A stretch of 64,000 bases of DNA from Trichechus inunguis. Lineage: Eukaryota. Below, piece after piece: positions 10,301 through 39,060 of this stretch. Position 1 is the stretch's first letter. Each line of letters starts with the position of its first letter. Made by a program: the position numbers and the translations under genes. The DNA lies in assembly GCA_046562895.1 (NCBI GenBank), contig CM102154.1, positions 28,077,733-28,141,732 of the forward strand. Reading direction: 5' to 3'. The notes beneath the pieces were generated by a model. It worked only from the letters and a program-made list of their open reading frames with translations, was not told the origin of the DNA and searched no databases.

Positions 10301-13100
10301 AGAATCCACAAGAAAGCTACTGCAACTAATAGAAGATGTCAGCAAAGTAGCAGGATACAACCTTAACATATAAAAATCAGTTGGATTTCTCTACACCAAC
10401 AAAGAACTTCGAAAAGGAAATCAGCAAATTAATATCATTTACAGCAGCCCCCCAAAAGACAAAATACTTACGGATAAATCTAACCAGGGACGTAAAAGAC
10501 CTATACAAAGGTAACTACAAAACACTGCTGCAAGAAACCAAGAGACCTACATAAATGGAAAAACATACCATGCTCATGGATAGGAAGACTCAACATCGTG
10601 AAAATGTCAATACTACCCAAACAATCTACAGATACAATGCAATCCTGATCCAAATGCCACCAGTATTCTTTAACAAGATGGAGAAATAAATCATCAACTT
10701 TATATGGAAATTGAAGACGCCCCAGATAAGTAAAGCATTACTGAAGAAGAACAAATTGGGAAGCCTCACACTGCTTGTTTTAGAACCTATTATACAGCCA
10801 CAGTAGTCAAAATAGCCTGGTACTGGTACAACAACAGACACACAGACCAATGGAACAGAACTGAGAACCCAGATGTAAATCCATCCATGAGCAGCTGATA
10901 TTTGACAAAGGGTGAAAGTCTGTTCGGAAAAGACAGTCTCTTTAACAAATGTTGCTGACATAACTAGATATCCATCTGTAAAAAAATGAAACAATATCCA
11001 CACTTCACACCATACACAAAAACTAACTCAAAATGTTATCAGAGCCCTAAATATAAAACCTAAAACCAAAAAGATCATGTAGGAAAATATAGGGACAGTG
11101 CTAGGGACCCTGAGACATGGCATAAATACAATACAAACCATAACTAACAATCCACAAACACCAGAAGAGAAATTAGATAACTGGGATGTCCTAAAAATTA
11201 GACACTTATGCTTATCAAAAGACTTCATCAAAAGAGTAAAAGGAGAACCTATAGACTGGAGAAAAAAATTTTGGCTACAACATATCGGATAAGGGTCTAA
11301 TCTCTAAAATCTACAAAATACTTCAACATCTCAACAACAAAAAGACAAATAATGTCTCCAGACATTCGGGCAGCTAACAAACACATGAGGAAATGCTCAC
11401 AATCATTAGCCATTAGAGCAATGCAAATCAAAACTACAATGAGATACCATCTCTCCCCAACAATACTGGCACTAATCAAAAAAAAAAAAAACAAACTTTA
11501 GAGAGGTTGCAGGGAGATTGGAACTCTTATGCACTACTACCGCGAATGTAAAATGGTACAACCACTATGGAAAACAATATGGCACCTCCTTAAAAAGCTA
11601 GAAATAGAAATACCATACAATCCAGCAATCCCACTCCTAGTAATATATCCTAGAGAAATAAGAGGTATCATATGAATAGATGTATGTACATCTATGTTCG
11701 TTGCAGAATTATTCACAATAGCAAAAAGATGGAAACAACCTAAATGTCCATCAACAGATGAATGGATAATCAAATTATGGTACATACACACAATGGAATA
11801 CTACGCAACGATAAAAAACAATAATGAATCCGCGAAACATCTCACAACATGGATGAATCTGGAGGGCATTATGTTGAGTGAAATAAGTCAATCACAAAAG
11901 GAAAATTTTTTATGAGACTACTACTACAAGAACTCAAGAAAAGGTTTACACACAGATGGGTGGGGAGGGCTGGGGAGAGGAAATCACTAACTAGATAGTA
12001 GACAAGTGTCAACTTTGGTGAAGGGAAAGACAATACACAATATAAGGCAAGTCAGCAAGACTTGACGAAGGCAAAGTCATAGAAGTTTCCTAGACACATC
12101 CAAACACCCTGAGGGACTGAGTTACTAGGGCTGAGGGCTGGAGACCACAGTCTCAGGAGACATCTGGGTCAACTGGCATAACAAAGTTCATAAAGAAAAT
12201 GTTCTACATCCTACTTCGTTTGGTGAATAGCATCTGGGATCTTAAAAGCTTGCAAGTAGCCATCTAAGCCACATCTATGGGTCCCATCCCATCCAGAGGA
12301 AAGGAGAATGAACAAAACCAAAGACATGAGGGAAGTATTAGTCCAAAGGACTAAAGGACCACATGAACCAGAGCCTCCACCAGCCTGAGCCCAGAAGAAC
12401 TAGATGTTGCCCAGCTACCACCACCTCCTGCTCTGACAGGGATCACAACAGAGTCCCGGACTGAGTGGGAGAAAAACACGGAATAAAATTCAAATTCACA
12501 AAAAAGACTAGACTTACTTGTCTGACAGAGACTGGAAGAACCCCCAAGACTATGGCCCCCGGACACTCTGCTAACTCAGAACTGAAACCACTCCCAAAAC
12601 CCACTTTTCAAACAAAGATTAGACAGCCCTTTAAAACAAACAATAACACATGTGAAGAACGTGCTTCTTAGTTCAATCAAATATATGAGATCAAATGTGC
12701 AACTCCTGTCCCAAACCAAGACAAGGCAGGAAGGGACAGGAACTGGACAGACACAGGGAATCCGAGTTAGAAATGGGGAGAGTGTTGTCACATTGTGAGG
12801 ACTGCAACCAATGTCACAAAACAATATGTGTATAAATTTTTGAATGAGAAACTAACTTGAGCCATAAACTTTCACCTACTAAGCACAATAAAATTAAAAA
12901 AAAAAAAAAAAAAAAGAATCAACTTGACAGCAACTGGTTCAGCTGGTTAGACAATACCTGCTCATGGGACAGCCACAGAAGGGAAGAAGAATTCACTAAT
13001 CTGTGTCCACTAACAATGTCCTCAGCTGTCAGTGAAAGGCCAGGAAGTGCAGGCAATTAGTTCAGAGGGGCATAAAAAAGGAAAGGCAAGAGACACTCAC

Positions 13101-13315
13101 AAGGGGACCTTCTCCTCTGTGGTTAGGCTAAACACCACCTTTCCCAGGACCACAGCACCACTATTCACACCAGGTTGAAGCACACTCAATGGCTTGAGCT
13201 CCAGGGTCACCTTCTGCCCAGAGGCTGACTGATAGCGCCCATCACCACAAGGGCCTAGATGAGCTGGGCGCAAGCTTCCCAGCATGCTCTGCAACTTTTT
13301 GGTCTTTACCTTTCC
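13101..13315 (-). CDS. TTC5: TTC5 coding exon, penultimate in human numbering: [71 protein letters not shown], then a phase-2 donor. Acceptor ttttgcag|GGAAAG, donor CCCTT|gtgagt
   Basis: The translation matches my recall of the human TTC5 C-terminal OB-fold region. Canonical AG/GT splice signals sit at both ends. Confidence 0.8.
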
Positions 13316-13487
13316 CTGCAAAAGAAATAGATAAGGAGCCGGAAATTAAGTCACTGCTTGAGAGTCTAGTCTTTCCCTCCAACCACACACCTCTATCAGA
13401 TCAACACCACATCAGCCTATTTTCTTCTTATTTTACTGACCCTACCCAAAATGAAAGAGCAGGGTCCAGTCCTTTAGACGTCTTTAC

Positions 13488-13634
13488 CTTGCTCTCAAGG
13501 AGGCTGGTTAATCTATCCAGGAATTCCAGGAGCTGTTGCTCTCGTTGCAGGGGCTCAGGCCAGGCAGGGTCCAGTGCTGCAGCCCGAGAGAAGCCCTCCA
13601 GGGCCTCTCTGTAACTCTCTTCATATTTATGCAA
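13488..13634 (-). CDS. TTC5: TTC5 coding exon (49 codons): [49 protein letters not shown]
   Basis: Acceptor ttcttgtgcag|TTGCAT, donor AGCAAG|gtaaag. Contains the TTC5 TPR region motifs. Confidence 0.8.
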
Positions 13635-14126
13635 CTGCACAAGAAGTAACCCAAAACCTCCCAATTACAAGTGTATTTAATACAAACTATGCAGGGGGAG
13701 GAAAGGCATAGGGGCTAGGAATTTAGAGAAATAAACTGCTTCCCTTCCCAGTCCTACCATGAACAGCCTGGAGAGCTGGTAACACCTTACAACCTTCCTT
13801 CCTGGCCAAGGTGATCACAACCCCAAAGCTGGAATCATTTCAAAGAAGCTATCCTCCAAGCTCTAAAATAATTAAATTGCATATACTGGGTCATTTTATA
13901 CCTATAATTAACATTTCAGAGAAGTCTTCTAAACTATTTCCCCATCCTCTATGTACCATCCCACCTCCTCAGTCCGTTCCGCCTCCAGTAACTCCACCAG
14001 ATACTGAAGCCGAAGTGAGCTAACTCTTCCTAGAAATAATCTGGCTTTCTGCTAGAAATCTGTACCCAACCTTGTCTCTATATGTACTCAGTTATCCTCA
14101 GAGGACCACTACCTCACAGGTCTTAC

Positions 14127-14183
14127 CGTCGCCCTGTTCAGATGAAGGTCAGGATTGCTGGAAGCTGTCCTGTCGACCTTCTC
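14127..14183 (-). CDS. TTC5: TTC5 micro-exon (19 codons): EKVDRTASSNPDLHLNRAT
   Basis: Found by searching for the residues expected between the flanking exons. Acceptor ctgtag|GAGAAG, donor GCGACG|gtaaga. It is in phase with the neighbouring exons. Confidence 0.7.
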
Positions 14184-15089
14184 CTACAGTGGGATAAAAA
14201 GATCATCAGTGGATCCTGTCTCAGTCTTAAGGAGGGCCATGCTCAACCGTTCCTAGACCTCTTCTCTCTAAAAAAAAATGCTAAGTCTCTTGTCAAAATG
14301 CTACCCATACCCACACTGTTACATACCAACTGCTTGTGTGGTATATAGTTACCAACAAGTATAACACAAAACATCATCCAAAAAGGATTACTCAGTCCCT
14401 GAAACCTCAGCAATGTATGGGGTTTTGTGTGTGTGTGTGCATGGAACTTTAAAATATGATTATAATTTATCCATACGATATTAGAAAGATAGAAAAGAAG
14501 TATGAGAAAGCATTCTGCTTTTTTTTCTTTTTTAAATAGTGAGATGCTGATATAATGAGGAAAGCCTCTGACAGAAATGATGTTAACTTAATGCATTTCG
14601 TTTGCCCATGAGTTTGACTCCAGGCACATGCAGAATGTTTCTATATCCAAGCTCCTTAAAACACACACTGGAAGTGTCAAATTCTGATTCTCTAATTTTA
14701 ACAGCTGGTCAAAAATCATAGGACAGGGCAGACAAACGTGCTCTCAAGAAACTGCTGGCTATCTTCATTCTATTTTTTTAATTCTATTCATTGCCTGGCA
14801 CATTGCCAAAGCATAAACAACATGAATTAAAACTGTTTACAATGGTTGGTTCACATATATTTTAAACTGCAGGTATGGGTGAAGAATTTAAAACAACCAT
14901 TTAAGAGAAGTCAAATATAAAATCATAAAGGAGTACATCATATTATTGGAAATGTAAACATTCATCAGATTAAGAAATAAGAGCAAAATATAATTTCTCT
15001 GCCTAAGTTTCTTAACTGAAAAAAGGGCAGTCCCTGAACTGCACACATGAATATGGGGTAACTGTATTCTTTCTTATGCCATACAGAGC

Positions 15090-15480
15090 AAAAAAGTAAT
15101 GCCAATAAAGAGAAACGAAGTCTTGATACATGCTACAACATGGATGAACTTGAAAACACCATGCTGAGTAAAATCAGTCAGTCAAAAAGGACTAATATTG
15201 TATGATCCACTTATATGAAATATCTGGAATAGGCAAGTGTATACAGACCTGTTTATTAGTGGTTACCAGGGGCAGGCAGGAAGGAGGGGAGAAAGGGAGA
15301 ATCATTGCTTAGAGGACACTGAGCTTCTAATAAGGGTGATGGAAAAATTTGAAACAGATAACAGTGATGAATGCACAACATCATGAACACAATTAATGTC
15401 ACTGAATTATACATGTGAGGAATGTTGAAATGGCAAATGTTTTGTTACACATATATTTACTACAAAAAAAAACCAGAATG
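15090..15480 (+). mobile_element. Older eutherian-type L1 3' end in a TTC5 intron: ORF2 C-terminus ..MDELENTMLSKISQSKRTNIV*, then 3'UTR and poly(A)
   Basis: Conserved L1 ORF2 terminal motif, and a 3'UTR '..aattaatgtcactgaattatacatgtg..tgttacacatatatttactacaaaaaaaaaa' like L1M/L1P 3' ends. Confidence 0.6.
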
Positions 15481-16587
15481 CTGGATTTTACAGATAAGGT
15501 AGTAGGTCTTATAATTGTGAGGTTTTTTTTATTATTGTAAAACTGAGGTTTTCTAATAAATTGTAAAATGCCTCTGGGGAGATATAACGGCAAGTTAAGA
15601 AGCAATTCCCTATGTCAAGAGAAGAAAGCAAAAGAAAAGTTAAATATGAGGGTTAAATAAAAGGTGCTCAGAAGGCCAATGTGAATCTCCAAATAACCAG
15701 TAACTGAGCAGACAAAGCCTGAAGAGCCCATGCATTTGGCTATCAATACAGCATGGCCTAAAAGCAAAGCATGAGCTCCAGTGAATTAATTCCTAGGAAA
15801 TGATGCAGAAGGGCCTACATGCTATTACCTGTTTGAGTCTAAGGGAAATCCAGAGCCAGAATATCTAACAGTTAATTTGGGAATAGCCCTTAATTTGCAC
15901 GGCCAATGTGCCTCAAGTGCAGCCACTACTCATTGGTCAGTGGAGACTTGCATGTTGCTATAATGCTGAACATGTTTCAGCAGAGCTTCCACACTAAGAC
16001 AGACTAGAAAGAGAGGCCTGGCAATAGACCATATATTTATGCAAATAATGCATGTCTTCTACGTTCATTTGCCAGCTGCACCCTCCCCCTACCTTTCCCC
16101 GATATTTTCGTAAACATGCTATGCTAATTTTTTTTCACAGCAACATGTTAAAAATAATTGGGATAGCAGCGCTTATGAAAATACCTCCCGGGGTGAGGGC
16201 GCAGTTGTCAAAAAAACGCAGAAGGTATGCATTATTTGTGTAAAAATACAGTACTTCCAAAAAAAATCAGCCAATATAAAATGCTATGAGTCACAATGGT
16301 CCAATTCTCCACCAACCATGGGGATGGTGCAGGACCGGGCAGCGTTTTATTCCACTGGGCATGGGGTCACCAAGAGTCAGGGGCCAACTGGACGGCAGCT
16401 AAAAACAGCAACAACTGGAGTTTTCCTTTTTATTTAAAAATGTACACCAACAGGAATAAATATTTTAAAAAATTTTTTGCCCATTAAAAACAATGCACTT
16501 GCTGAAGTGAGTTCTGTGGTTTGGTTAGGCATGACTTTGAGAAATCTAGACTGCTCACGGAGCTATCTAGCATTGAGACCAAAAAAA

Positions 16588-16742
16588 ACCAAACCCATTC
16601 CCATCGAGTCAATTCCGACTCACAGCGACCCTATATGTCAGAGTAGAACTGCCCCATATGGTTTCCCAAAAACGGCTGGTGGATTCAAATGGCTGTCCTC
16701 TTTTAGCAGCTGAGCTCTTAACCACTGCACCACCAGGGCTCC
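16588..16742 (-). mobile_element. AfroSINE copy (tRNA-derived afrotherian SINE) in a TTC5 intron. A further tail fragment lies at about 16330-16420 (+)
   Basis: Reverse complement of 'ggagccctggtggtgcagtggttaagagctcagctgctaa..ggattcgaaccaccagc..gggaaaccatatggggcagttctactctgacatatagggtcgctgtgagtcggaattgactcgatggg'. Confidence 0.85.
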
Positions 16743-16955
16743 AGCACTGAGACACGACACTGCGGATGGTTGCTAATACTCAAGCTGTAAGGAAAAATAA
16801 GTTGCCTCTGCAGACACAGCTCAGCAAACCCACATGTTAGATGCCAGCAAACACTGCCCAGGCTTCTGGCTAAAGGGCCACAAAGAAGACAGAATGACGC
16901 TCTTGCTTCTGTTGTTGCCTCTATTCATCTGGCCTGGGTGACCGCAAGTACTTAC

Positions 16956-17047
16956 TGCTTGGGCATAAGCACTGAGGGCTTGCTGGGAGATCTTAGGGCT
17001 CTGGCCAGTATTGAAGTAAAGAGAAAGGTATGCATTCCCCAGGATAT
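16956..17047 (-). CDS. TTC5: TTC5 coding exon: (Y)[30 protein letters not shown]
   Basis: Acceptor ctttcag|ATATCC; donor CAAGCA|gtaagtact, a consensus donor. Confidence 0.8.
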
Positions 17048-17446
17048 CTGAAAGAGAAATACAGAGATGGGTCACCTCAGAGCCCAAGTTCAAGATATGA
17101 CCTGTTTTGGTCATCCTCAAAAGTCTACTTGAAAGATGGCACATCTGACACAAACCAGTGATAACACCACATTTAGTATACCAAAATTCTACTGAGATAG
17201 ACAAACACAAACGCTATGAAGAAACCTTGAACAGACCGTACAAATCTCTGCCTTCCTTATATGGAAACATAAGCCTCCTAGAACAGTGGTTCATCAAAGT
17301 ACCTTTGGAGCTTCTTCAAAACAAACATGCCCTGGCTTCACCCTCAGAGTCAGAATCAATAGGTGGGGTCCAGATGATTCTGGTGTGCAGCCATGGTTGA
17401 GAACCACTGCTCTAGAAACGTCTGGAGATCTTTTGAGAGCACTCAC

Positions 17447-17597
17447 ACCAGGAGCGGCCATCATGGACATCCATCTGCACAGCCAACTTGGCCTGTCGGA
17501 CACTATCCATGACATAGCGAGAATGTTCATCTCCAGTGTCAGTCCGCAGCTGGCGAAGCACCATTGACAGGTTTTGCAGGGAGACTTTGTTCTTGCA
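17447..17597 (-). CDS. TTC5: TTC5 coding exon: [50 protein letters not shown](Y)
   Basis: Acceptor ttctcag|TGCAAG; donor TCCTGGT|gtgagt. Confidence 0.8.
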
Positions 17598-18021
17598 CTG
17601 AGAATGGAGAAGATGTTTACTCAACATTCCTTGCACTGTGAATGGAGATGTTTACTCAACATTGCTAATTATACCTCCTCTTTCCAGATCTATTCTGACC
17701 TCAATCCTCTTCTAAATCTAATTCTTTAATTCTTGCTGCCATCTGAATCTTAGACCCCCATCTACAAGGACCAGCTTGGTTGTTAACTTTTCTTCACTTC
17801 CCATCTACCCTGAACCTGATCCCATTACCTTCTTCTTTTCTCAGTTCCCTGTCCTGACCTTCTTCATCCGGGTCTGCTCCCCGACTCTTCCTCTCTTCTG
17901 ATTCTGTTCTCCTGGTTCTAACTCAGCTCTGTGCTAGTATTCATACCCTAGGGCAATTCACAGACCAGAGGAATCCCATCCTTTCTACACGCGTTTTCTG
18001 AGGGGACAGCGGGCAGCTCAC

Positions 18022-18233
18022 ATGGGTGAGGGCTCCTGAGAAGCAGGTATGGGCAGCTGCAACATCCCCTTTCTTCCAGTACACCTCACCCAGCTGGTTC
18101 CAGGCTTCCACCAGCTCAGGTTCCAGCTTTACAGCCTTTGACAGAAGCTCCTCAGCCCTAAGGCTATAGTCAGGAGTCACATTCAGTGCCTTCCCAGTGA
18201 GCATCAGAACCCGGGCCTTGCCCTGGACAGAAC
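18022..18233 (-). CDS. TTC5: TTC5 coding exon: (G)[70 protein letters not shown]
   Basis: Acceptor ctcgtag|GTTCTG (phase 1); donor ACCCAT|gtgagc. TPR-repeat signature (WxxLGxxYxxxGxxxxAxxxF). Confidence 0.85.
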
Positions 18234-18464
18234 CTACGAGGAAGGGAAAAAGAGAAAGGAAAGTTGAAAAAACCAGTCAGTCTTTCAGATAAGACTAGAG
18301 CACTATCTCTCAAGGAGTAACTCCATGCCATCTCTAGGAATAAAAGAGTTGAAGAAAATCTTTATATACAAACCATTTATTGAAAGCCAACCATATGCAG
18401 AGTACTATGCTGGGTAATGGGGTAACAAAGAAAGCACCACCCCTACCCTTGAGGGGTTTACAAT

Positions 18465-18605
18465 CTGGTGGAAAGGCCAAAGATGTGGCAGTCTGCTTCC
18501 GTAAAGATTTACAGCTTTGGAAACCCTATGGGGCAGCTCTACTCTGTCCTATAGGGTCACTATGAGTTGGAATCGACTCCACAGCAGTGGGTTTGGTTTG
18601 GGGTT
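18465..18605 (+). mobile_element. AfroSINE, 5'-truncated. Another complete copy lies at 19518-19745 (+)
   Basis: '..gcagtctgcttccgtaaagatttacagctttggaaaccctatggggcagctctactctgtcctatagggtcactatgagttggaatcgactccacagcagtgggtttggtttgg'. Confidence 0.85.
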
Positions 18606-19278
18606 TATCTCACCTAGTAAAGTAAAACAACAATGGAAAGGAGCATATTATGTATGCCCAATGAGTTGGTTTTAAAAAGTCAAGAGGAGAGAAGACAAGG
18701 CCCTCCAGGTTAGAAAACGATGTAAACAAAGATGCAGAGGCAGAAATACACGTGACCTGTTTATGGGAGAATGGAAGGACCAACCCGGAAGAAATGAAAG
18801 ATTACTCTGTAAGTAGGTAGTCAGAGATGAGGTTAGAAAAAAGAGTGAGATGAGGGAGACCTGAATACCATATTAAGTGGCTTAGACTTCTGCTAGTCAA
18901 TAGCACAAATCTCTGAAGACGATAAGATTAAATGAATGAAGTAATGTTTAGAAAGGTAACCGTGGCCATGGTATTTATATAAGGTGCTTTGGAAATGAAA
19001 GAAATCAGAGGCAGAAAACTCAGTCATGAACATTACTGCAATAGTTCAGGCAACAAGTATGTTCTCTTATTCCATAGTATTTGCTATAATTTTAGGAAAA
19101 GTAGTTTAGAGAACTGAGAGGTCACCACCCTACGCAGGGGCCCTTAGAAGAAGTATTCTGTTATACTATCCTATAGCCGTCACAGATAGGATCCCAAAGA
19201 GACTACAGACAGAGAGCAAATCTCTATAACATTCAGGTGAAGAGCAGGAAGGGGGTTGTGCTCTTTTGGAACTCATAC

Positions 19279-19411
19279 CTGCTACTTCCTCCATCAGTCG
19301 CAGAGTCTTCTCCATCTCCTCCCGTACATCCTGTTGCTTCCTCCCAGCATCCTCAACACTATGTGTCTCGAAATAGCAGTCTCGAAATGAATAGAGCTGA
19401 TCCACCAGTTC
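19279..19411 (-). CDS. TTC5: TTC5 coding exon 2: [44 protein letters not shown](G)
   Basis: Acceptor ttctag|GAACTG; donor GTAGCAG|gtatga, phase 1. Confidence 0.8.
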
Positions 19412-26061: not shown

Positions 26062-26264
26062 CTAAACTCTCTTTACTTTGAAGGCTCTACTAGAGACTTG
26101 CTGATGCTCTAATTCACGACTTGGAGAGGCAAAACTGAAAAAGCTGTTGCTGGGTTCAGGTGCTGTTGGAGAACCCACAAAAAATGGTCTGAATTGAAAA
26201 TCTCCATCTCCTCCACCCCGATTTCGAACTGGTGTATTGTCCAAAGGAAACTTGGAGTTGTTTC
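26062..26264 (-). CDS. CCNB1IP1: CCNB1IP1 (HEI10) last coding exon: (G)NNSKFPLDNTPVRNRGGGDGDFQFRPFFVGSPTAPEPSNSFFSFASPSRELEHQQVSSRAFKVKRV*. Stop TAG at 26062-26064
   Basis: Acceptor ttttttccacag|GAAACA (phase 2). The C-terminus matches human HEI10. The 3'UTR continues below 26062. Confidence 0.85.
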
Positions 26265-26799
26265 CTGTGGAAAAAAAAAATAAGGGAAAAACTTAAGCAT
26301 CTATTTCCTTACTGATCTTTAGGAACAAAAAAACGTAAGTCATTCAATGAACATTATTAACAGAACTCGACTCCTATGAGAGTTACAGGTAAAATAAAGA
26401 CCTAATGTTGTTTAAAGAAAAAGACTATGATCACCCCTATCTTTACCCTCAACTACAGTATATACTGTACCTTCTTCTGTGATGCAGTGTGATCCAGCGA
26501 CAGCCATGGCCTCATCACCAAAAGTAATGACACACAGAGATATGTTTTTAGTAGAGCTAGAATTTACAGTATCATAATTTTACTCATTTGTTAACTATGT
26601 AACCTATTTCAGGGGAAGCATCTTATATATTTATATATACACATACAATATATGCATATATATAATTTAAATATATATAAAAGCTTTTCTTCCAAGTTCG
26701 TTAAAAATAATTTTTAAAAATATTGCAATAAACACTCTAGAAAATATATGACAACTATGAAAAACTGGCATATTCATGGTTCAAGATCAATTCAAAGGC

Positions 26800-28860
26800 T
26801 TAAGAGAAAGCAAACATACTTGGGGAAAAGACAGTCTCTAATAAATGGTACTGGCATAACTGGATATTCATTTGCAAAAAACTGAAACAAGACCCATACC
26901 TCACACCATGCACAAAAACTAACTCCAAATGGATCAAAGACCTACATATAAAATCTAAAATGATAAAGATCAACGGAATAAAAAATTGGGACAAAGCTAG
27001 GAGCCCTAATACATGACCTAAACAGAATATGAACCATAAGTAACAATGCACAAGCACCAGAAGAGAGACTAGATAACTGGAAGCTCCTAAAAATCAAACA
27101 CGTATGCTCATCAAAAGACTTCACCAAAAGAGGAAAAAGACAACTTACAGACTGGGAAAAAAATTTTGGCTACGACAAATCTGATCAGCCTCTTATCTCT
27201 AAACTCTACAAGATACTGCAAAATCTCAACAGCAAAAAGACAAATAACCCAATTAAAAAATGGGCAAAGGATGTAAACAGGCACTTCACCAAAGAAGACA
27301 TTCAGGCAGCTAACAGATACATGAAGAAATGATCTTTAGCCATTAGAGAAATGCAAATCAAAACTACAATAAGATACCATCTCACCCCAACAAGGCTAGC
27401 ATTAATCCAAAAAACACAAAATAATAAATGCTGGAGAGGTTGTGGAGAGACTGGAACACTTATACACTGTTGGTGGGAATGTAAAATGATACAACCACTT
27501 TGGAAATCGATTTGGCGCTTCCTTAAAAAGTTTGAAATAGAAGTACTACATGATCTAGCAATCTCACTCCTTGGAATATATCCTAGAGAAATAAGAGTCG
27601 TCACACGAATAGATATATGTACGCCCATGTTCATTGTAGCACTGTTCGTGATAGCAAAAAGATGCAAACAACCCAGGTGCCCAACAACAGATGAATGGAT
27701 AAAAAAATTATGGTATATTCACACAGTGGAATATCACGCAACGATAAAGAACAACGATGAATCCGTGAAACATCTTATAACATGGACGAATCTGGAGGGC
27801 ATTATGCTGAGTGAATTTAGTCAGTCACAGAAGGGCAAATATTGTATAAGACCACTATTATAAGAACTCAAGAAAAGGTTTAAACACAGAAGAAAACATT
27901 CTTTGATGATTACAAGGGTGGGGAGGGAGGGTGAGAGTTATTCACTAACTAGATAGTAGACAAGAATTATCTTAGGTGAAGGGAAGGACAGAACACAGTA
28001 CAGGGGAAGTCAGCACAACTGGACTAAACCAAAGCTAAGAAGTTTCCTGAATACAATCAAACACTTTGAGAGACAGAGTAGCAGGGGAAGGAGTCTGGGG
28101 ACCATGCTTTCAGGGGACATCTAGGTCAACTGGCATAACAAAGCTTATTAAGAAAATGCTCTGCATCCTACTTTGGTGAATGCCACCTGGGGTCTTACAA
28201 GCTTGCAAGCGGCCATCTAAGATGCATCAATTTGTCCCAACCACTTGGAGTAAAGGCGAATGAAGAACACCAAAGACACAAGGAAAGTAGTAGCCCAAGA
28301 GACAGAAAGGGCCATATAAACCAGAGACTTCATCAGCCTGAGACCAGAAGAACTAGATAGTGCCCAGCTACCACCAATGACCACCCTGAATGGGAACACA
28401 ACAGAGAGTCCCTCATGGAGCAGGAGAAAGGTGGGGTGCAGAACTCAAATTCTAGTAAGAAGACCAGACTTAATGGTCTGACTGAGACTGGAGGAACCCC
28501 GGAAAGCATGGCCCCTGGATTCTCTATCAGCCCAGAACTAAAACAATTCCCGAGGCCAACTCTTCAGACAGGGATTAGACTGGACTGTGGGACATAAAGT
28601 GATACTCATGAGGAGTGTGCCTTTTAGCTCAGGTAGATACAAGAGACCAAAGAGGCAGCTTCTGTCCAGAGGTGACATGGGAAGGCAGAGAAGGTTAGGA
28701 GCTGGTTGAACGGACATGGGGAATCAGAGGTGGAAAGGAGAAGTGTGTTGTCGCAGTATGGGGAGAGCAATCAGGGTTATATAACAATGTGTGTATAAAT
28801 TTTTATATGGGAGACTAACTTGAAATGTAAACTTCATTTAAACTACAATAAAGAAAAAAG
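26800..28860 (+). mobile_element. L1 copy C, 5'-truncated (end of ORF2 plus the full 3'UTR), in CCNB1IP1 intron 2
   Basis: ORF2 tail WGKDSL..NKWxWHNWIFICKK ... [59 protein letters not shown] ... [14 protein letters not shown], then the 3'UTR blocks ending '..gtaaacttcatttaaactacaataaagaaaaaag'. Confidence 0.9.
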
Positions 28861-29572
28861 AAAATGTTCTGCATCCCACTTTGGTGAGTGGCGTCTGGGG
28901 TCTGAAAAGGTAGCGAGAGGCCATCTAAGATGCATCAATTGGTCCCAATCACCTGGAGTAAAGGAGAATGAAGAACACCAAAGACACAAGGAAAGTAGTA
29001 GCCCAAGAGACAGAAAGGGTCACATAAACCAGAGACTGCATCATCTTGAGACCAGAAGAACTAGATGGTGCCCAGCTACCACCAATGACCACCTTGACAG
29101 GGAACACAACACGGAGAAGGAGAAAGGTGGGGTGTAGAACTCAAATTCTAGTAAAAAGACCAGACTTAATTGTCTGACTGAGACTGGAGGAACCCTGGAA
29201 AGCATGGCTCCCGGACTCTCTGTCAATTCAGAACTAAGACAATTCCCAAGGCCAACTCTTCAGACAAAGATTGGACTAGACTGTGGGACATAAAATGATA
29301 CCTGGCTTCTTAGCTCAAGTTGATACATGAGACTAAATGGGTAGATTCTGTCTGGAGGTGAGATGAGAAGACAGAGAGGGTTAGAAGCTGGTTGAATGGA
29401 CATGGGAAATCAGGAATGGAAAGGAGGAGTGTGCTGTCACAGTATAGGGAGAGCAATTAGGGTCCCATAACAATGTATGTATAAATTTTTGTATGAAAAA
29501 CTAACTTAAAATGTAAACTTTCACTTAAACTACAACAATAAACAAATAATAATAAAAAAAGTCTAAAAAAAA
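28861..29572 (+). mobile_element. L1 copy D: a second about-710-bp L1 3'UTR-only fragment sitting directly in the tail of copy C, forming a tandem 3'UTR doublet
   Basis: 28861-29572 realigns block by block to 28160-28860 ('aaaatg[tc]tctgcatcc[ct]actttggtga..ccatctaagatgcatcaatt..ccagctaccaccaatgaccacc..gtaaact..'), ending in its own A-rich tail. Confidence 0.8.
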
Positions 29573-30037
29573 GAGTAGCATAAAGAAGAGAAGTCAAGAA
29601 GAGATAGAACATTCATTGTATCTGCCAAGGCAATTAACAGACAGAAAAGGGCCACTATCATCCTAGATCCCAGAGGGCAGAAATCCTACCTGGATAAGCT
29701 TTATATCTTCATTGACTAAGATTGTCCCCAACAGCCTGTCACATGAAACATGTTTGATAAATATTTGATGAGTGAACAAAGGAATGAAGAGCAAAAGAAC
29801 AAACCAACCTTATAACCGACAATAACTTTACAACTGTGTAGTCAGTATTGCTGTGCAAAAGAAACTGAAACATGACCTTCTAGGAAGACAGCAAATAGTG
29901 TGGGCTCTGTAACCATGACCAAATTACTTAGCCTTTCTGTGTCTCATTTGGTGATCTTTAAAGCAGGGATAATAATAATACTTACCTCATAGAGTTTTGA
30001 AAATTACATAAATACATGTAAAATATTCATAACAATC

Positions 30038-30180
30038 CAAACCCATTGCCGTCAAGTCGATTCCAACTCCTAGCTACCCTATAGGACAGAGCAGAACTGT
30101 TCCATAGGGTTTCCAAGGAGCAGCTGGTGGATTCAAACTGCCGACCTTTTGGTTGGCACAATGTTTGCCACTTAGTAAGC
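30038..30180 (-). mobile_element. AfroSINE copy (diverged head) in the CCNB1IP1 intron
   Basis: 'caaacccattgccgtcaagtcgattccaactcctagctaccctataggacagagcagaactgttccatagggtttccaaggagcagctggtggattcaaactgccgacc'. Confidence 0.8.
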
Positions 30181-30494
30181 AATCAATCAACAAACCTCAA
30201 CTAATAGTGCTATCATCACTGCAACTACATAGTTTTTAATTTAAAGTAGCAATTTACTAACTTTTATCTTACAGAGATTAACTCTTTGCTCAAGTTAAAG
30301 ATTTAACTTAAACGCAAGCAAATAAAACAGATAAAAGCAATGATGTAGAGGATAAGACGTGGATTAAAAAACCCAGAGCCTACCACTATCCTAGCCCCTT
30401 GGAGGCACCACTGACTGCTTGGAAGTCTGCAGAGCACAATATGAAAATCACTGATTTAAAGAATAGATATTAGACATCACATGTCCTTCCTTAC

Positions 30495-30828
30495 CTAATG
30501 GGAAACCAAAAATACCAGACTGTGCAATCATGGATGGTTCTAGGGTGCCTTCTTGGTTAGCAATAGTGATGTTTCGTAGCCTAAGGCTATCGTAGAGGCC
30601 CTGAAGTTTTTGATACTGGCGATTGCGCTCCATAAGTTTCTCAGAGATGTCACTGAACTTTTTCTTGTATTCTTCTAGCACTTTCTTCATAGAGGTGACC
30701 TCCCCTTTCATAGAGGTCAATTCTACATCCTTGCTCTGTATTTGCTGAGTATAGATCTTCTCCATCTGCTTCAGATGACCCTCAGCCTTGCTGAAATTGT
30801 ACTCTTGATAGAGACGTTCCTGATGTAC
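30495..30828 (-). CDS. CCNB1IP1: CCNB1IP1 (HEI10) middle coding exon: VHQERLYQEYNFSKAEGHLKQMEKIYTQQIQSKDVELTSMKGEVTSMKKVLEEYKKKFSDISEKLMERNRQYQKLQGLYDSLRLRNITIANQEGTLEPSMIAQSGIFGFPL(G)
   Basis: Acceptor ggaatag|GTACAT (phase 0); donor CCATTAG|gtaagg (phase 1). Coiled-coil region of HEI10. Exon length gives 111 codons plus 1 nt. Confidence 0.9.
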
Positions 30829-31160
30829 CTATTCCAAGACAGAAAAGATTTTTAAGGTAATGATTATAAAGTTATATACCGTAAAACTTTATATAATCAC
30901 AAAAGAAAAAGATGCTTACATTGGGATGTTACTACCTTAACATTTAGAACCAGGTTAAGAAGCATTGAGGATATACAGTAAGATGATTACCATAGAAAAT
31001 AACTGTATATAAGTAAAAAATAAGTATATAAGAAAAATTTCTGGAGCAATACTAACCACTATCCTTATTCCACCAAAAAAACAAGTGATTTCACTTGTCT
31101 TATTTTAACAAGTGACATGTATTCCAAAGGTTCTTAAGAAATATAATTCCACTTTTCAGA

Positions 31161-34046
31161 GAGTTTGAAAGCATTCCCCTTGAGAACGGGAACACACAAG
31201 GATGCCCTTTATCATCACGCTTATTCAACATTGTGCTGGAGGTCCTAGCCAGAGCAATTAGGCTAGAAAAAGAAATAAAGGGCATTCAAATTGGTAAGGA
31301 AGAAGTGAAAGTATCTCTATTTGCAGATGGTATGATCTTATACACAGAAAACCCCAAAGAATCCACAAGAAAACTACTGCAACTAGTAGAAGATTTCAGC
31401 AAAGTATCAGGATACCAGATAAACACACAAAAATCAGTTGGATTCATCTACACCAACAAAGAGAACTTCCAAGAGGAGATCACCAAATCAATACCATTTA
31501 CAATAGCCCCCAAGTAGATAAAATACTCAGGAATAAATCTAACCAGAGATGTAAAAGATCTGCACAAGGAAAACTACAAGACACTACTGCAAGAAGCCAA
31601 AAGACACCTGCATAAGTGGAAAAACATACCTTGTTTATGGATAGGAAGACTCAACATTGTGAAAATGTCAATTCTATCCAAAGCAATATACAGATACAAT
31701 GCAATTCCGATCCAAATTCCAACAGCATTTTTTAATGATACGGAGAAATGAATCATCAACTTCATATGGAAAGGGAAGAGGCCTTGGATAAGTATAAAGC
31801 ATTAGTCAAGAAGAAGAACAAAATGGGAGACCTCACACTACCTGATTTTAGAACTTATTATACTGCCACGGTAGTCAAAACAGCCTGGTACTGCTACAAC
31901 AAGAGAAACATAGACCAACGGAACAGAATTGAGAATCCAGAGATAAATTCATCCACCTATAAGGAGCTGATATTTAACAAAGGCCCAAAGTCTGTTAAAT
32001 GGGGAAAAGACAGTCTCTTTAACAAATGGTGCTGGCATAACTGGATATCCATCTGCAAAAAAATGAAACAATACCCCTACCTCACACCATGCATAAAAAC
32101 TAACTCAGAATGGAACAAAGACCTAAATATAAAAACTAAAACAATAAAGATCATGGAAGAAAAAATAGGGACAACGCAAAGAGCCCTAATACATGGCATG
32201 AACAGAATACAAAACATTATTAACAATGCACAAATACCAGAAGAGAAACTAGATAAGTGGGAGCTCCTAAAAATCAAACACTTATGCTTATCAAAAGACT
32301 TTAACAAAAGAGTAAAACGACGACCTACAGAATGGGAAAAAATTTTTGGCCACAACATATCCGATCAGTTTCTAATCTCTAAACTCTACAAGATACTGCA
32401 AAATCTCAACGACAAAAAGACAAATAACCCAATTAAAAATGGGCAAAGGATGTGAACAGGCACTTCACCAAAGAAGACATTCAGGCGGCTAACAGATACA
32501 TGAAGAAATGCTCTCGATCATTAGCCATTAGAGAAATGCAAATCAAAACTACAATAAGATACCATCTCCTCCCAACAAGGCTAGCATTAATCCAAAAACA
32601 CAAAATAATAAATACTGGAGAGGATGTGGAGAGACTGGAACACTTACATGTTGTTGGTGGGAATGTAAAATGGTACAACCACTTTGGAAATCAATTTGGT
32701 GCTTCCTTAAAAAGCTAGAAATAGAAGTATCATACGATTCAGCAATCCCACTCTTTGGAATATAACCTAGAGAAATAAGAGCCATCACACGGATAGATAT
32801 ATGCACACCCATGTTCACTGCAGCACTGTTCACGATAGCAAAAAGACGGAAACAAGCTAGGTGCCCATCAACAGACGAACGGATAAATTACGGTATACTC
32901 GCACAATGGAATACTACACAAAGATAAAGAACAATGATGAATCCATGAAACACCTTATAACATGGATGAATCTAGAAGGCATTATGATGAATGAATTTAG
33001 TCAGTCACAAAAGGACAAATATTGTATGAGACGACTATTATAAGAAGTCAAGAAAAGGTTTAAACACAGAAGAAAACATTCTTTGATGGTTACGAGGGTA
33101 GGGAGGGTGGGAGAGGGGTATTCACTAACTAGACAGTAGACAAGAATGATCTTAGGTGAGGGAAGGACAGAACACAGTACAGGGGAAGTCAGCACAACCA
33201 GACTAAACCAAAGCTGAGATGTTTACTGAATACCACCAAACACTTCAAGGGACAGAGTAAGCAGGGGTTGGGGTCTGGGAACCATGGTTTCAGGGGACAT
33301 CTAAGTCAACTGGCATAACAAAGCTTATTAAGAAAATGTTCTGCATCTCACTTTGGTGAGTGGCATCTGGGGTCTGAAAAGGTAGCAAGCGGCCATCTAA
33401 GATGCATCAATTACTCCCAACCACCTGGAGCAAAGGAGAATGAAGAACACCAAAGACACAAGGAAAATATTAGCCCAAGAGACAGAAAGGGCCACGTAAA
33501 CCAGAGACTTCATCAGCCTGAGACCAGAAGAACTAGATGGTACCTGGCTACCACCAATGACTGCCCTGGTGGGGAACACAACAGAGAGTCCCTGAGGGAG
33601 CAGGAGAAAAGTGGTGTGCAGAACTCAAATTCTAGTAAAAAGATCAGAATGAGACTGGACGGACCCTGGAAGGCATGGCCCCCGAACTCTCTGTTAGCCT
33701 AAATCTGGAACCATTCCCGAGGCCAACTCTTCAGACAAAGACTAGACTGGACTATGGGACATAGAATGATGCTCGTGAGGAGTGTGCTTCTTGGCTCAGG
33801 TAGATACATGAGACTAAGTGGGCGGCTCCTGTCTGGAGGCGAGATGGGAGGGCAGAGAGGATCAGGACCTGGTTGAATGGGCACGGGAAATCTGGGGTGG
33901 AAAGGAGGAGTATGCCGTCACAGCATAGGGAGGGAGAGCAACTGGGGTCACATAACAATGCGTGTATAAATTTTTGTATGAGAGACTAGCTTGAATTGTA
34001 CACTTTCACTTAAAGCACAACAATAAAAAAATAAAATAAAAAAACA
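31161..34046 (+). mobile_element. L1 copy E, 5'-truncated (RT domain to the 3' end plus 3'UTR/poly(A)), antisense to CCNB1IP1 in its intron between coding exons 1 and 2. Flanked by a 24-25 bp TSD 'aagaaatataat[tc]cca[ct]ttttca[ga]' (31137-31160 and 34047-34071)
   Basis: ORFs 31233-31517, 31748-32455 and 32452-32718 give L1 ORF2 RT and C-terminal motifs. The 3'UTR ends '..cactttcacttaaagcacaacaataaaaaaataaaataaaaaaacaaag'. Direct repeats sit on both flanks. Confidence 0.9.
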
Positions 34047-34929
34047 AAGAAATATAATCCCATTTTTCAAGTAACCCATCATATGGAGAATAGACTCTAA
34101 GGTAGCCCCCAATTATCCCTGCCTCCTGGTACTTACACCCTGTGTAACCCTCTCCCCTTTAGTGTTGGTGGGACCTGTGACTAGAACACAGCAAAGGTGA
34201 TGGGATGTCACTTTATGGTTGTGTTACATAAGACTGTAAAGATCTGTCTCACAAGAACACTATCCCTTGCTGGCTTTGAAAAAGCAGCAGCCACACTGGG
34301 AAGGCACACATGGCAAGTAACTGAGAGTGGCTTCTGACTAACATAAATAAGAAACTGAGGCCCTCAGTCTGACAGTTCACTGGGAAGTGAATGCTGCCAA
34401 CCACCACATGAGTTTGGAATTGGAACCTTCCCTAGTGGGGCTTCAAATGAGACTCTAGCCCCAACCAACACCTTGACTGCGGTCTTGTGGGACGTTGACC
34501 TAAGCAAAAGACTCAGCTAAGCTATGCCTGAACACCTGACCAACAGAAACTATGAAACAATAAATGTGTGCTGTTTTAAGCTATTAAAGTTCTTGTTTAA
34601 GGCGCTGTTTGTTACACAGCCATAAACCAAGCCAAACCCATTGCCATCAAGTCAACTCCAACCCATAGTGACCCCATGTGTTATAGAGTAGAACTGCTCC
34701 ATAGGGTTTTCTTGGCTGTACTGTTAATGGAAGATTGCCAGGTCTTTCTTGTGCTAGACAGCTACTAAAAACAGAAATAAATTTGGCTTATCTTTGGGTT
34801 TATTGTCCTTTAAATATTCTGACAAGAAATCTGAGCACGCTACTTCTTTTTTTTTTTTTTTTTAACCATTTTTAATTTGCCCATTCTACACAGTTTGATG
34901 CAACTCTACCAAGTCTGGGTTATCCGATC

Positions 34930-35100
34930 CTCCTGGCTGTTAATCTAAAGGTTGGCAGTTCGAACCCATCCATTGGAGACTCAGAAGAAAGGCCTGGTGA
35001 TCTGCTTCCATAAAGATTACAGTAAAAAAAAAAACCCTACGGGGCAGTTATACTCTGTAACACATAGGGTTGCCATGAGTCAGAATCAACTTAATGAGTT
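34930..35100 (+). mobile_element. AfroSINE copy. Further copies lie at 35700-35910 (+), 39309-39492 (+), 41758-41955 (+), 46890-47000 (-), 53810-53965 (-), 54265-54412 (-), 54760-54907 (-), 55547-55720 (+) and 55868-56035 (-). Short fragments lie at 34630-34700, 42295-42400, 53345-53410 and 63240-63340
   Basis: All share the tRNA-like head 'ggagccctggtggtgca.tggttaa..gctgctaacc.aaaggt..g.agttcgaa.cc' and the core '..gatctgcttccgtaaagattacagcc..aaaccctatggggcagttctactctgtcctatagggtcgctatgagtcggaatcgactcgac'. Confidence 0.85.
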
Positions 35101-37165
35101 GTTTTGTTTTGTTTTGGTATGCACTCCCATAGCACTTTGTTCTTTCCTTATGGTTGTAAACATTAAAAATGTATTATACACTCTGGTTTCTCTCCAGAAC
35201 ATATTAATCTTTGGTCTTTTACCAAAGATTTCTGGAGATGCAACGATTGTGAGTAAACAGCACAAAACAACAACAGCCAAGTTTTGGAAGCCTTGCATGG
35301 AGGCAGGGCTTATTTAAAAAAAAAAAATAAAGTATTACAAATGCCTGAGAGTTTTTTTGTTTTTTTTTTAAGCTTCATCTCCAACTGAACTGTAGCCTCC
35401 TTGAGGCTCATATGTCTTATTTATTGTTGTACACCCAATACCTAAGAAAGTTTATGAAATACCAATGTTTGCTGGTACTCAAAAAGTAAATGTTCAGTGA
35501 CTACACGGGGAAAAAAATGAGTAAAGAAAGAAAAGTTCATTTCTAGCTACCTTTGCAACTCATTCACTAATTTCCACCATACCTGAAAAGAAGAAAACAA
35601 CAACACATGTATGTGTTCAATCAATACTATCCCAAATAGGAATCCACTTTAAGATACAGCTTCTACTCATTCAGTCAGTAAAGATTTATTTAAACTTAAG
35701 ACGGAGCCCTGGAGGCTCTATGGTTAAGTGCCTCGCTGCTAACCTAAACGTCAGGACTTCGAACCCATCAGCCATTCTGTGGGAGAAAAGACCTGGAGAT
35801 CTGCTCCTGTAAAGATTACAGCCCAGGAAACCCTGTGGGACAGTTCTATACTCTACCCTATAGGGTTGCTGAAGTGGAATCGATTCGACAGCACACAACA
35901 ACAAAGAACAATAACTATGGTGGTCACTGAGGACGCAGTGATGTACAAGAATCAAAACCTGACCTTAAAGAACTTTCTTAACATGAGATGAACAAGTATG
36001 CAGGTAATTACAATACAGTATAAATAAGTGTAAGATATAGGAACGTATAAGAGGAGCACCTTACCCAGAAAAATAATAAAAATGTTACTTGATGGATGTT
36101 AAACACAACCATCAAAATGCATTATAATAAATATATATGCAAGATATAACAATATACTCAAGGACATGATTAAAGTTCTCCACAGGAAGATCTTTCTAAG
36201 AAGGCACCAAAGGCAGAAATCATAAAGAAGACTGATATATCTGAATACATAAACATTTTAAACTTCTGTATGTCAAAAAATCAATGAAGACTAACAAAAG
36301 TGAAAAATGAAGAAAATCTCTTGCAACATTTGAATTATTTATAGAGAAAATTCCTACAAATTAGTAGGAAAATAAATACAGCAACTGAAATAAGACTGAA
36401 ACAGACAATTCATAAAAGAAGAAATACATGAAAATAAAAGAAAACATGTTCATCTTACAAGTCATCAAAGATGACAAATTTAAAAAACAATGAGATTCTA
36501 TTTTACCTATATCTAACTGGTGTGCAGAAGGTATGAATACATAGAGAACCAAGCACTCTCATACTCTCATATGCTTTTTTGAGGGAATATTAACTGATAT
36601 AGCCTCACTGGAAGACAATTAGAAAATACTGTAATTTAAGAAATCTTTAAAATGTGTTTATCCACTTTTAGGAATTTAATCTTAGCAAATAATTAAGGAT
36701 GCAAATTTGACCATAAGAACATTCATCACAGCATTTTTTTATAACTTGGAAACAAATTATGATATAATGTAACCATGAAAATGATGATTACAGAATAGTT
36801 AAACTAAAAATTTTAATGTAATATTCATAATACATGTATCATACTAACTTTAACTAGCCATAAAAACAATGGGTGGTATTATCGTATTTTTGTACAGAAA
36901 TATATATATTTATACATAGAAAAAGTCAAGTAATACACAAACAAAAATATTAACATGGTTATATCTAAGTGATGGAATTATGGTTGGTTTTTAAAATTTT
37001 CTTCCTTTTGGATTTTCAACAACAAACGTAAATTTTGTACAAAATAAAACAATTTATTAAAAAGAAAGTTTTTCATACATTCATAAAACAGTGAAGGAAA
37101 AACACTGGACACTCCCACATATGCCTCAAGTCATACTCTCCAGAGAAACTAACCTAAGCACTAAC

Positions 37166-37487
37166 CTGATACGTCCAGAAAGCCAGTGCTCGGGAGCTAA
37201 TGTCCAACACAATCTCTGGTCGCAGTCCTGCCAACACCATGGCTTTATATTCCTCTGATGGACTGAGTTCTGTGCGGACAATATCTAGCTTCCCAGAAAG
37301 GGTACTGTTGCAGGCAGGGCAGATAGCTGGTGAACGACTAAACTCACCGCTGCCATGCTGATCACAGAAGATGTGAGAGCAGGCGGTGACCCACGCATAA
37401 CCAGAGAGTTTAAGGCGACACTTCCGATAATTACAAAGCAGCATGTCTTCACACAAAGACATAATGGAAGAATAAGGTCTCTAGATG
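37166..37487 (-). CDS. CCNB1IP1: CCNB1IP1 (HEI10) first coding exon: MSLCEDMLLCNYRKCRLKLSGYAWVTACSHIFCDQHGSGEFSRSPAICPACNSTLSGKLDIVRTELSPSEEYKAMVLAGLRPEIVLDISSRALAFWTYQ. ATG at 37462; 25 nt of 5'UTR up to the acceptor cttttcag at 37488-37495
   Basis: N-terminal RING-type zinc finger (CxxC...C.H..C..H) identical in pattern to human HEI10. Donor TATCAG|gttagt, phase 0. Total CDS is 99 + 111⅓ + 66⅔ = 277 codons, the length I recall for human HEI10. Confidence 0.9.
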
Positions 37488-38739: not shown

Positions 38740-39060
38740 CTGAGGCGCCACGAAAAAGCGCGGGAAAACACCGTTGTCAACGCAACTCCACAACGAGAGA
38801 CTTCCCAGCTCGCGCGCAGACGCCGCCCGAGAGCGCATGCGCGGAGTGGCACCCGGACTCCGGCCGCTCAGGATCCCGGGACCCACCGGGCGGTGGCGCC
38901 AGAGCTGGAACTGCGCTGGGAGGGCCACGCCTCCAGATCACGCGCATTGTAGGCGCCGCAGGGCGGTGAATCCGGCTGCGTCTAATCCAGATCTCCTACT
39001 TCAGAGTCTTGCAGATACTGTCGTAGAGCGCCGTTAACCGCCCTTGAGTAGCAGAGGTGT
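38740..39060 (-). promoter_or_regulatory. CCNB1IP1: CpG island containing the proximal CCNB1IP1 promoter and a non-coding 5' exon. Minus-strand donor GCGCCTCAG|gttaag at 38740; NRF1-type palindrome gcgcatgcgcg at about 38832-38842
   Basis: Only strongly CpG-rich block between the two genes ('..cgcgcgcagacgccgcccgagagcgcatgcgcggagtggcacccggactccggccgc..'). A consensus 5' splice site on the gene strand sits 1.25 kb upstream of the ATG exon acceptor. Confidence 0.55.

Follow-up and report, generated by a model that had tools for sequence, protein, structure and literature searches.

A CCNB1IP1 (HEI10) orthologue in the manatee and the antisense L1 fragments in its introns

Three separated blocks of open reading frame in a 64,000-nucleotide stretch of the Trichechus inunguis genome (contig CM102154.1, positions 28,077,733 to 28,141,732; hereafter the window) resemble CCNB1IP1, also known as HEI10, and L1 sequence lies between them. 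The locus raises the question of whether these blocks constitute an intact gene or a paralogous or inactivated copy, and of how old the L1 insertions in its introns are. We conclude, with a probability of about 0.96, that the locus is the intact and functional CCNB1IP1 orthologue of the manatee, its introns carrying old, dead, antisense L1 fragments. CCNB1IP1 already stands in RefSeq with an identical protein and there is nothing new in the gene itself; old truncated antisense L1s are likewise the rule in the introns of mammalian genes, and the value of the exercise beyond an annotation check is limited. What has been gained are corrections to an initial annotation, concerning the exact target-site duplication (TSD) of the L1 in intron 1, the probable age and decay of that copy, and a transcription unit that is probably longer than its coding exons.

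Gene structure and protein identity

The coding sequence lies on the minus strand. The coding part of exon 1 (37166–37462; 297 nt, residues 1–99) begins with the ATG at 37462–37460 and encodes the RING domain, a linker helix and residues 82–96 of the head-to-head bundle. Exon 2 (30495–30828; 334 nt) encodes residues 100–210 and the first base of codon 211, a stretch that takes in the coiled coil and the first part of the tail, while the coding part of exon 3 (26062–26264; 203 nt) supplies residues 211–277 and the TAG stop (26064–26062). This last exon encodes the C-terminal tail, with the Phe-rich patches FQFRPFF and SFFSF and the basic tip RAFKVKRV (residues 270–277). The division of the protein proposed in the initial annotation, with the RING in the first exon, the coiled coil in the second and the C-terminus in the third, is about right. 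Intron 1 (30829–37165, minus strand) measures 6,337 bp, is of phase 0 and runs from GTTAGT to AATAG; intron 2 (26265–30494, minus strand) measures 4,230 bp, is of phase 1 and runs from GTAAGG to CACAG. Both introns are canonical at the junctions 37165/30829 and 30494/26265, with the exon 1 donor GT at 37165–37164, the exon 2 acceptor AG at 30830–30829 and the exon 2 donor GT at 30494–30493. Joined together, the exons comprise 834 nt: 277 codons and a TAG, uninterrupted by stops and without a frameshift at either join, so that the complete three-exon coding sequence described earlier is exact to the base. An in-frame TAG stands 21 nt 5′ of the ATG, and the first AATAAA 3′ of the stop codon is 453 nt away, at 25609. 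Splicing at these GT-AG introns would yield a protein of 277 residues, which is the length found in gorilla, macaque and manatee.

The predicted protein is identical to CCNB1IP1 of Trichechus manatus latirostris and T. inunguis, the exact matches being RefSeq XP_004390063.1 (T. manatus latirostris) and KAM9645948.1 (Trichechus). In a homology search, each of the 120 matches listed was either CCNB1IP1 or a protein without a name that carries the same RING domain, and the top matches, named CCNB1IP1, showed 94–97% identity at 100% coverage, which bears out the original naming of the gene. Gorilla CCNB1IP1 aligns without gaps at 268 of 277 positions (96.8%), and macaque CCNB1IP1 is also 96.8% identical. 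The nine substitutions that separate manatee from gorilla comprise L17I, Q191H and seven in the disordered tail (residues 205–277). The human comparison was made with the crystal construct of the HEI10 core (9GES, residues 1–196), in which 194 of 196 positions are identical, and gorilla and macaque here stand in for the full-length human protein, which we take to be UniProt Q9NPC3. The initial estimate of more than 90% identity to human holds on both counts.

Individual features of the protein agree with this assignment. Pfam places a zf-RING_5 domain (PF14634) at residues 10–52, with a score of 30.3 bits (cut-off 27.9), and eight Cys/His residues (C10, C15, C28, H30, C33, H36, C48 and C51) are candidate RING ligands. 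The coiled-coil core (residues ~82–196) is present with its head-to-head tetramer interface, the interface residues of which are conserved. A study of the human structure mapped 13 residues to tetramer, lattice or RING interfaces (PMC13174674), and all 13 are kept in the manatee: Y22, R43, K58, R63, Y72, V76, L77, P82, L86, L93, W96, L105 and Y109. C-terminal Phe-rich patches and a basic tip, both present in the manatee tail, are described features of HEI10 (PMC13174674). Human HEI10 builds rod-like tetramers, which go on to form larger assemblies, and catalyses K63-linked ubiquitin chains (PMC13174674), while mouse CCNB1IP1 is needed for the formation of meiotic crossovers (chiasmata) (PMC3139512). 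By extension from human and mouse, the manatee protein, with its RING, long coiled coil and Phe-rich, basic-tipped tail, would be expected to be expressed and to act as an E3 ligase with a role in crossing over.

Neighbourhood and upstream region

TTC5 lies downstream of CCNB1IP1 on the same strand, and SNORA79 (43681–43827, minus strand, 123.9 bits), SNORD126 (46671–46747, minus strand, 108.9 bits) and RPPH1 lie upstream, again on the same strand. This gene order is consistent with a CCNB1IP1 orthologue. Among these neighbours, TTC5, SNORA79 and RPPH1 match the order around the human gene. A competing account, on which we would be dealing with a paralogue or with a copy that has been inactivated, has nothing specific in its favour and retains a negligible probability: it conflicts with the canonical introns and an open frame of exactly the orthologous length, with 97% identity to primates and the retention of every mapped interface residue, with the conserved neighbours (TTC5, the snoRNAs and RPPH1), and with a protein identical to the RefSeq model. 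The window, moreover, holds a single set of exons, as a tblastn search with gorilla CCNB1IP1 matched these three exon blocks only. A processed pseudogene was also considered and, like a paralogue, rejected: the locus has introns, lies in conserved synteny and matches RefSeq exactly.

In humans, SNORD126 is hosted in an intron of CCNB1IP1 (PMC8148486). The manatee transcription unit, as a snoRNA host, probably reaches some 10 kb further upstream than the coding exons, and non-coding 5′ exons, with introns hosting SNORA79 and SNORD126, would most likely form part of it; SNORA79 would then sit within a 5′-UTR intron. A CpG-island-like segment (38601–39150, minus strand) lies ~1.1 kb 5′ of the ATG exon and overlaps a match (38734–38883, E 2.7e-9) to the extended N-terminus of a CCNB1IP1 isoform from bonobo. 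Among the N-terminal extensions of other mammals' predicted isoforms, this was the one credible match in the window, with a few weak ones elsewhere. We regard the CpG-island-like segment as a candidate alternative first exon or promoter. Separately, a 13-nt stretch bounded by AG and GT occurs downstream of SNORD126 at ~46611–46599, and could be named a host exon only as a guess.

L1 fragments in the introns: structure, age and origin

Three L1 copies on the plus strand, antisense to CCNB1IP1, occupy the introns, with positions, orientation and sizes (2.8 kb for C and D together, 2.9 kb for E) as first described. L1 E (31159–34046; 2,888 bp) lies in intron 1, whereas L1 C (26817–28865) and L1 D (28858 to ~29573) share intron 2 and together span 2,754 bp. 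The L1s had been said to fill both introns; they are indeed present in both, but cover 46% of intron 1 and 65% of intron 2, at distances of 330–3,119 bp from the splice sites. All three copies are 5′-truncated and none retains the intact open reading frames required for competence. L1 E holds ORF2p from about residue 647 to its end, with the truncation point inside the reverse transcriptase (RT) domain, followed by ~1 kb of 3′ UTR and a short, interrupted A-tail. L1 C retains the final ~350 ORF2 codons and, behind them, the 3′ UTR and an A-rich end, and L1 D is a 0.7-kb piece of 3′ UTR only that abuts the A-rich end of C. For these pieces Pfam returned only a sub-threshold RVT_1 match, but a PDB sequence search against human ORF2p told much more: L1 E matched residues 672–764 (E 2.8e-32) and 858–1071 (E 6.8e-66), and L1 C residues 1104–1269 (E 1.9e-67). 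The ORF2 remnant of L1 E changes frame repeatedly (0/0/2/1/0/2), and reading through it requires at least four frameshifts and two in-frame stops to be passed.

L1 E is flanked by a TSD of 23 nt, with a left copy at 31136–31158 (plus strand; AAGAAATATAATTCCACTTTTCA) and a right copy at 34047–34069 (plus strand; AAGAAATATAATCCCATTTTTCA) that follows directly on the A-tail (34021–34046). The two copies match at 21 of 23 positions, both mismatches being transitions, and the adjoining position is mismatched on either side. The target site, CTT/AAGAAA, is similar to the L1 endonuclease site TT/AAAA, and the empty site would be expected to show a single copy of AAGAAATATAATYCCAYTTTTCA. This TSD is real and far beyond chance: among 1.28 million 23-mer pairs in the window at spacings of 2901–2921, it alone exceeded 17 matches in 23, and the analytic probability of a chance occurrence, allowing for 441 offsets, is ~5e-8. 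The initial annotation was therefore correct that a TSD exists, but it is neither 24 bp long nor intact. No convincing TSD was found for C, D or the two combined, the best candidate being a 12-nt pair matching at 10 positions (26802 and 29586).

Does the recognisable TSD make L1 E a comparatively young insertion, as first proposed, and perhaps one that is lineage-recent or even polymorphic? In favour are the length of the duplication, which can still be recognised from 21 matches in 23, and a divergence of L1 E somewhat lower than that of C, of D and, above all, of B, another copy in the window. Against this, two mismatches in the TSD imply that each copy has changed by ~4–5%, the short A-tail is broken, and the ORF2 remnant has decayed through its frameshifts and stops. 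The Kimura two-parameter (K2P) divergence of L1 E from the window consensus ranges from 5.8% (consensus including L1 E itself) to 7.8% (leave-one-out), which equals that of copies A and F and is slightly below that of C and D, the values for C, D and E spanning 5.8–10.9%; its closest relatives in the window differ from it by ~12%. L1 E also occupies the corresponding position in the public T. manatus scaffold JH594879.1, which comes from an independent Trichechus assembly with a 0.45% difference from the window. We consequently hold a young L1 E to be very improbable, and the claim of comparative youth finds no support. The sequence points instead to a dead insertion that is old and fixed; its age is of the order of tens of millions of years, a figure that derives from a consensus of 4–6 window copies and assumed neutral rates and is rough in absolute terms.

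An antisense bias of intronic LINEs is a genome-wide pattern, and an old, 5′-truncated, antisense L1 at least 330 bp from a splice site is something that mammalian introns normally contain and tolerate (PMC3088655). The tolerance of L1 E, accordingly, says nothing particular about CCNB1IP1. The three fragments would have been inserted antisense by target-primed reverse transcription, 5′-truncated, tens of millions of years ago, and have decayed since; they are presumably neutral passengers, removed when the introns are spliced out.

How C and D came to lie side by side is less clear-cut. D begins exactly at the A-rich end of C, repeats its last ~700 bp in the same orientation and, as with C, yielded no separate TSD, all of which would fit a single L1 insertion that later underwent a tandem duplication of its 3′ 0.7 kb. 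The K2P distance between C and D (0.151) is, however, only slightly smaller than those of D–E (0.170) and D–F (0.165), so that a derivation of D from C is not evident. Because the L1 endonuclease favours T/A-rich sites, one L1 commonly inserts into the A-tail of another. A tandem duplication is a serious but rather unlikely explanation.

Intron 1 also holds further elements. A U5 snRNA-like sequence (35178–35310, plus strand; 44.7 bits, just above the gathering score of 40 of the Rfam U5 covariance model) has a loop I that reads CUUUUAC, with changes in its flanks. Its Sm site, AAGUUUUGG, is altered and directly preceded by an insertion of 16 nt; the sequence is probably a pseudogene. A tRNA-derived SINE-like repeat lies at 34932–35094 (plus strand), with a second copy at 35703–35898; ARAGORN, run over the gene region to type these repeats, found no tRNA.

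Intronic L1s elsewhere are described as able to cause exonisation, intron retention and premature polyadenylation (PMC3192792, PMC2176070), and the antisense L1s might by the same token have been co-opted in sirenians, where they would influence CCNB1IP1 as, for example, cryptic exons, polyadenylation sites or an antisense promoter. No evidence at this locus favours such a role, and the decay of the L1s is at the neutral level of the other window copies. Their distance from the splice sites and a RefSeq protein built from the three canonical exons only argue in the same direction. Co-option is accordingly most improbable, and so is the broader notion that an L1 fragment or the U5-like copy provides a sirenian-specific regulatory element or alternative exon, nothing observed being in its favour.

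Comparison with known systems

The manatee locus resembles human CCNB1IP1/HEI10 in the architecture of its protein, with a RING, a coiled coil and a Phe-rich basic tail, in its neighbours TTC5 and RPPH1, and in its association with SNORD126 and SNORA79 as a likely snoRNA host. It departs from the human gene in the repeats of its introns, which are lineage-specific: afrotherian L1 and SINE sequences stand in place of the primate copies. The T. manatus scaffold JH594879.1 is collinear with the window over 31.5 kb at 99.2–99.6% DNA identity, all three L1 fragments included, which marks the window as manatee and not elephant sequence; it differs by ~0.45% mismatched bases and small indels, and by a 100-N gap inside L1 C where the window is continuous. 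As 5′-truncated mammalian LINE-1 copies, the fragments show ORF2p homology in the order RT to C-terminal segment (compared with human ORF2p structures 8UW3, 8SXT and 9HDO), together with a 3′ UTR, an A-rich tail and, around L1 E, a TSD whose length is typical and whose site resembles TT/AAAA. They differ in being dead, with frameshifts and stops, and in belonging to an afrotherian L1 lineage.

Structure and surroundings of CCNB1IP1

The three-exon minus-strand gene structure proposed for the meiotic crossover gene CCNB1IP1 (HEI10) is correct to the base, since exon joins, splice ends and protein alignment all agree. When joined by script, coding exons 1 (37166-37462, 297 nt), 2 (30495-30828, 334 nt) and 3 (26062-26264, 203 nt) stay in frame and give a coding sequence of 834 nt, consisting of 277 sense codons followed by TAG and interrupted by no internal stop, a length that supports the claim of 277 residues. 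The ATG (37462-37460) has an A at -3 and is preceded by an in-frame TAG 21 nt upstream. Both introns run GT..AG: intron 1 (37165..30829, minus strand; 6,337 bp, phase 0) starts with GTTAGT and ends with AATAG, and intron 2 (30494..26265, minus strand; 4,230 bp, phase 1) starts with GTAAGG and has a T-rich tract followed by CACAG at its end. Gorilla CCNB1IP1, run by tblastn against the whole window, matched the three exon blocks only.

The surroundings are likewise conserved. Look-up of the exact protein placed CCNB1IP1 on scaffold JH594879.1 of the Florida manatee assembly GCA_000243295.1, where TTC5 is called downstream; the window is collinear with this locus at 99.2-99.6% identity, with about 0.45% mismatches. 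The source is therefore a manatee rather than an elephant. The mismatch level exceeds what a single individual would be expected to show, and the window would derive from a different assembly, perhaps a newer one, from a different individual or from a sister Trichechus species. Within the window, tblastn of bovine TTC5 (aa 18-353) located coding exons of TTC5 at 19411..13100, like CCNB1IP1 on the minus strand and downstream of that gene, and on the public locus TTC5 starts about 3 kb beyond the CCNB1IP1 stop. Upstream of the ATG exon, Rfam models identified SNORA79 (43681-43827), SNORD126 (46671-46747) and the nuclear RNase P RNA gene RPPH1 (62225-62553), all on the minus strand; RPPH1 is overlapped by a CpG-island-like stretch at 62301-63050. 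Human SNORD126 resides in a CCNB1IP1 intron (PMC8148486). Because SNORA79 and SNORD126 lie upstream on the gene's own strand, the CCNB1IP1 transcription unit very probably reaches some 10 kb past 37487 by way of putative non-coding 5' exons. A second CpG-island-like segment (38601-39150) lies 1.1 kb ahead of the ATG exon and is a candidate for a promoter or an alternative first exon; it overlaps a minus-strand stretch (38734-38883) that has 46% protein identity to a predicted bonobo isoform of CCNB1IP1 (X1) over that isoform's N-terminal extension (E 2.7e-9).

Intron 1 also holds a plus-strand match to U5 snRNA (35178-35310; 44.7 bits against an Rfam gathering score of 40), which is probably a decayed pseudogene, given a 16-nt insertion ahead of an altered Sm site. 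Four tRNA-derived, SINE-like repeats of about 160-190 bp (34932-35094, 35703-35898, 19527-19718 and 41774-41952), with a mutual identity of 73-79% and a B-box-like GTTCGAACCC, are presumably afrotherian SINEs.

Antisense L1 fragments

Self-comparison of the window delimited six L1 3' fragments, all on the plus strand: A (538-3401), outside CCNB1IP1; B (9530-12918), just past the last matched TTC5 exon block and probably in a TTC5 intron; C (26817-28865) and D (28858-~29573), in CCNB1IP1 intron 2; E (31159-34046), in intron 1; and F (58881-61769), upstream of the gene. All six are 5'-truncated, share one L1 3' terminus and lie antisense to the minus-strand TTC5 and CCNB1IP1. These repeats bear the defining features of L1 insertions and are not intact. 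Against human L1 ORF2p, translated L1 E matches strongly at residues 672-764 and 858-1071, so that its truncation lies within the RT domain, near residue 647; L1 C matches strongly at residues 1104-1269 and retains only the last ~350 ORF2 codons, and L1 D is 3' UTR only. The public scaffold has a gap of 100 N within L1 C (20027-20126 of the aligned locus, corresponding to window ~27435-27472), where the window sequence is continuous.

The sizes and antisense orientation initially assigned to the intronic copies hold (C and D together 2,754 bp, E 2,888 bp), but they do not fill both introns as described, C and D occupying 65% of intron 2 and E 46% of intron 1, at distances of 330-3,119 bp to the nearest splice sites. 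All three are what target-primed reverse transcription and 5' truncation ordinarily leave behind. L1 D may be an independent insertion into the A-tail of L1 C, or it may be an old tandem duplication of the 3' end of C; the C-D distance (0.151) is just slightly below those of D-E and D-F (0.165-0.170). Antisense LINEs are enriched in introns genome-wide, sense-oriented LINEs being more disruptive (PMC3088655). Most simply, C, D and E would be neutral passengers that are spliced out with their introns.

Target-site duplication and age of L1 E

L1 E is flanked by a real target-site duplication (TSD), AAGAAATATAATTCCACTTTTCA on the left (31136-31158) and AAGAAATATAATCCCATTTTTCA on the right (34047-34069). 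When all 1.28 million 23-mer pairs spaced 2901-2921 apart were scored, no other exceeded 17/23. The initial annotation was thus right to recognize a duplication and wrong to call it intact and 24 bp long: it measures 23 nt and carries two mismatches, both transitions, and the adjoining base differs on either side. The left junction reads directly as CTT/AAGAAA, which we take to be a typical L1 endonuclease site.

The view that L1 E is comparatively young is unsupported; it holds against B and, by a narrow margin, against C and D, but not otherwise. This copy is old, fixed and dead, and several lines of evidence speak for its age: its A-tail is short and interrupted; its ORF2 remnant is spread in turn over frames 0, 0, 2, 1, 0, 2 and so contains at least four frameshifts, besides two in-frame stops; its nearest relatives within the window are ~12% distant; and it is also present in an independent public Trichechus assembly. 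Its K2P distance to the window-copy consensus is 5.8% when L1 E contributes to that consensus and 7.8% (7.5% at non-CpG sites) when it does not; on this measure copies A and F cannot be told apart from L1 E. The distances are 7.8-10.9% for C and D and 16-18% for B. If mammalian neutral rates of 1-2.2e-9 per site per year are assumed, the insertion dates to tens of millions of years ago by the TSD as well as by the distance to the consensus.

Kinship of the encoded protein

The locus displays every testable defining feature of a CCNB1IP1/HEI10 orthologue, in its RING, coiled-coil core, tail motifs, best hits and synteny. Nothing at the locus is new: the protein is already known, being identical to the existing RefSeq model of Trichechus manatus latirostris (XP_004390063.1) and to the T. 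inunguis record. Taken as a whole, the initial annotation was a correct manual one in which one detail, the TSD, is wrong and one inference, that L1 E is young, lacks support. In a search of 5.8 billion proteins, the CCNB1IP1 homologues recovered spanned mammals to sharks, the best matches showing 94-97% identity at 100% coverage. The 90%-identity cluster that contains manatee CCNB1IP1 mixes TTC5 and CCNB1IP1 entries and is represented by a TTC5 protein, which explains the absence of manatee CCNB1IP1 among the homology-search representatives; the mixture has the look of a clustering artefact, and fusion or read-through gene models spanning these neighbours are its probable cause.

Pfam places a RING finger (PF14634) at aa 10-52, above the curated cut-off, and weak coiled-coil-type matches at aa 101-184, while the tail retains Phe-rich patches and a basic tip. 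The assignment of RING finger, coiled coil and C-terminal region to successive exons is approximately right, exon 1 additionally holding the linker helix and four-helix bundle residues 82-96. The claim of over 90% identity to human is borne out: the window protein is identical to the 277-residue gorilla and macaque proteins at 268 of 277 positions (96.8%) without gaps, and to the human HEI10 core crystal (PDB 9GES, residues 1-196; PMC13174674) at 194 of 196. In that structure 13 residues have been mapped to tetramer, lattice or RING interfaces (PMC13174674), and all 13 are kept in the manatee protein.
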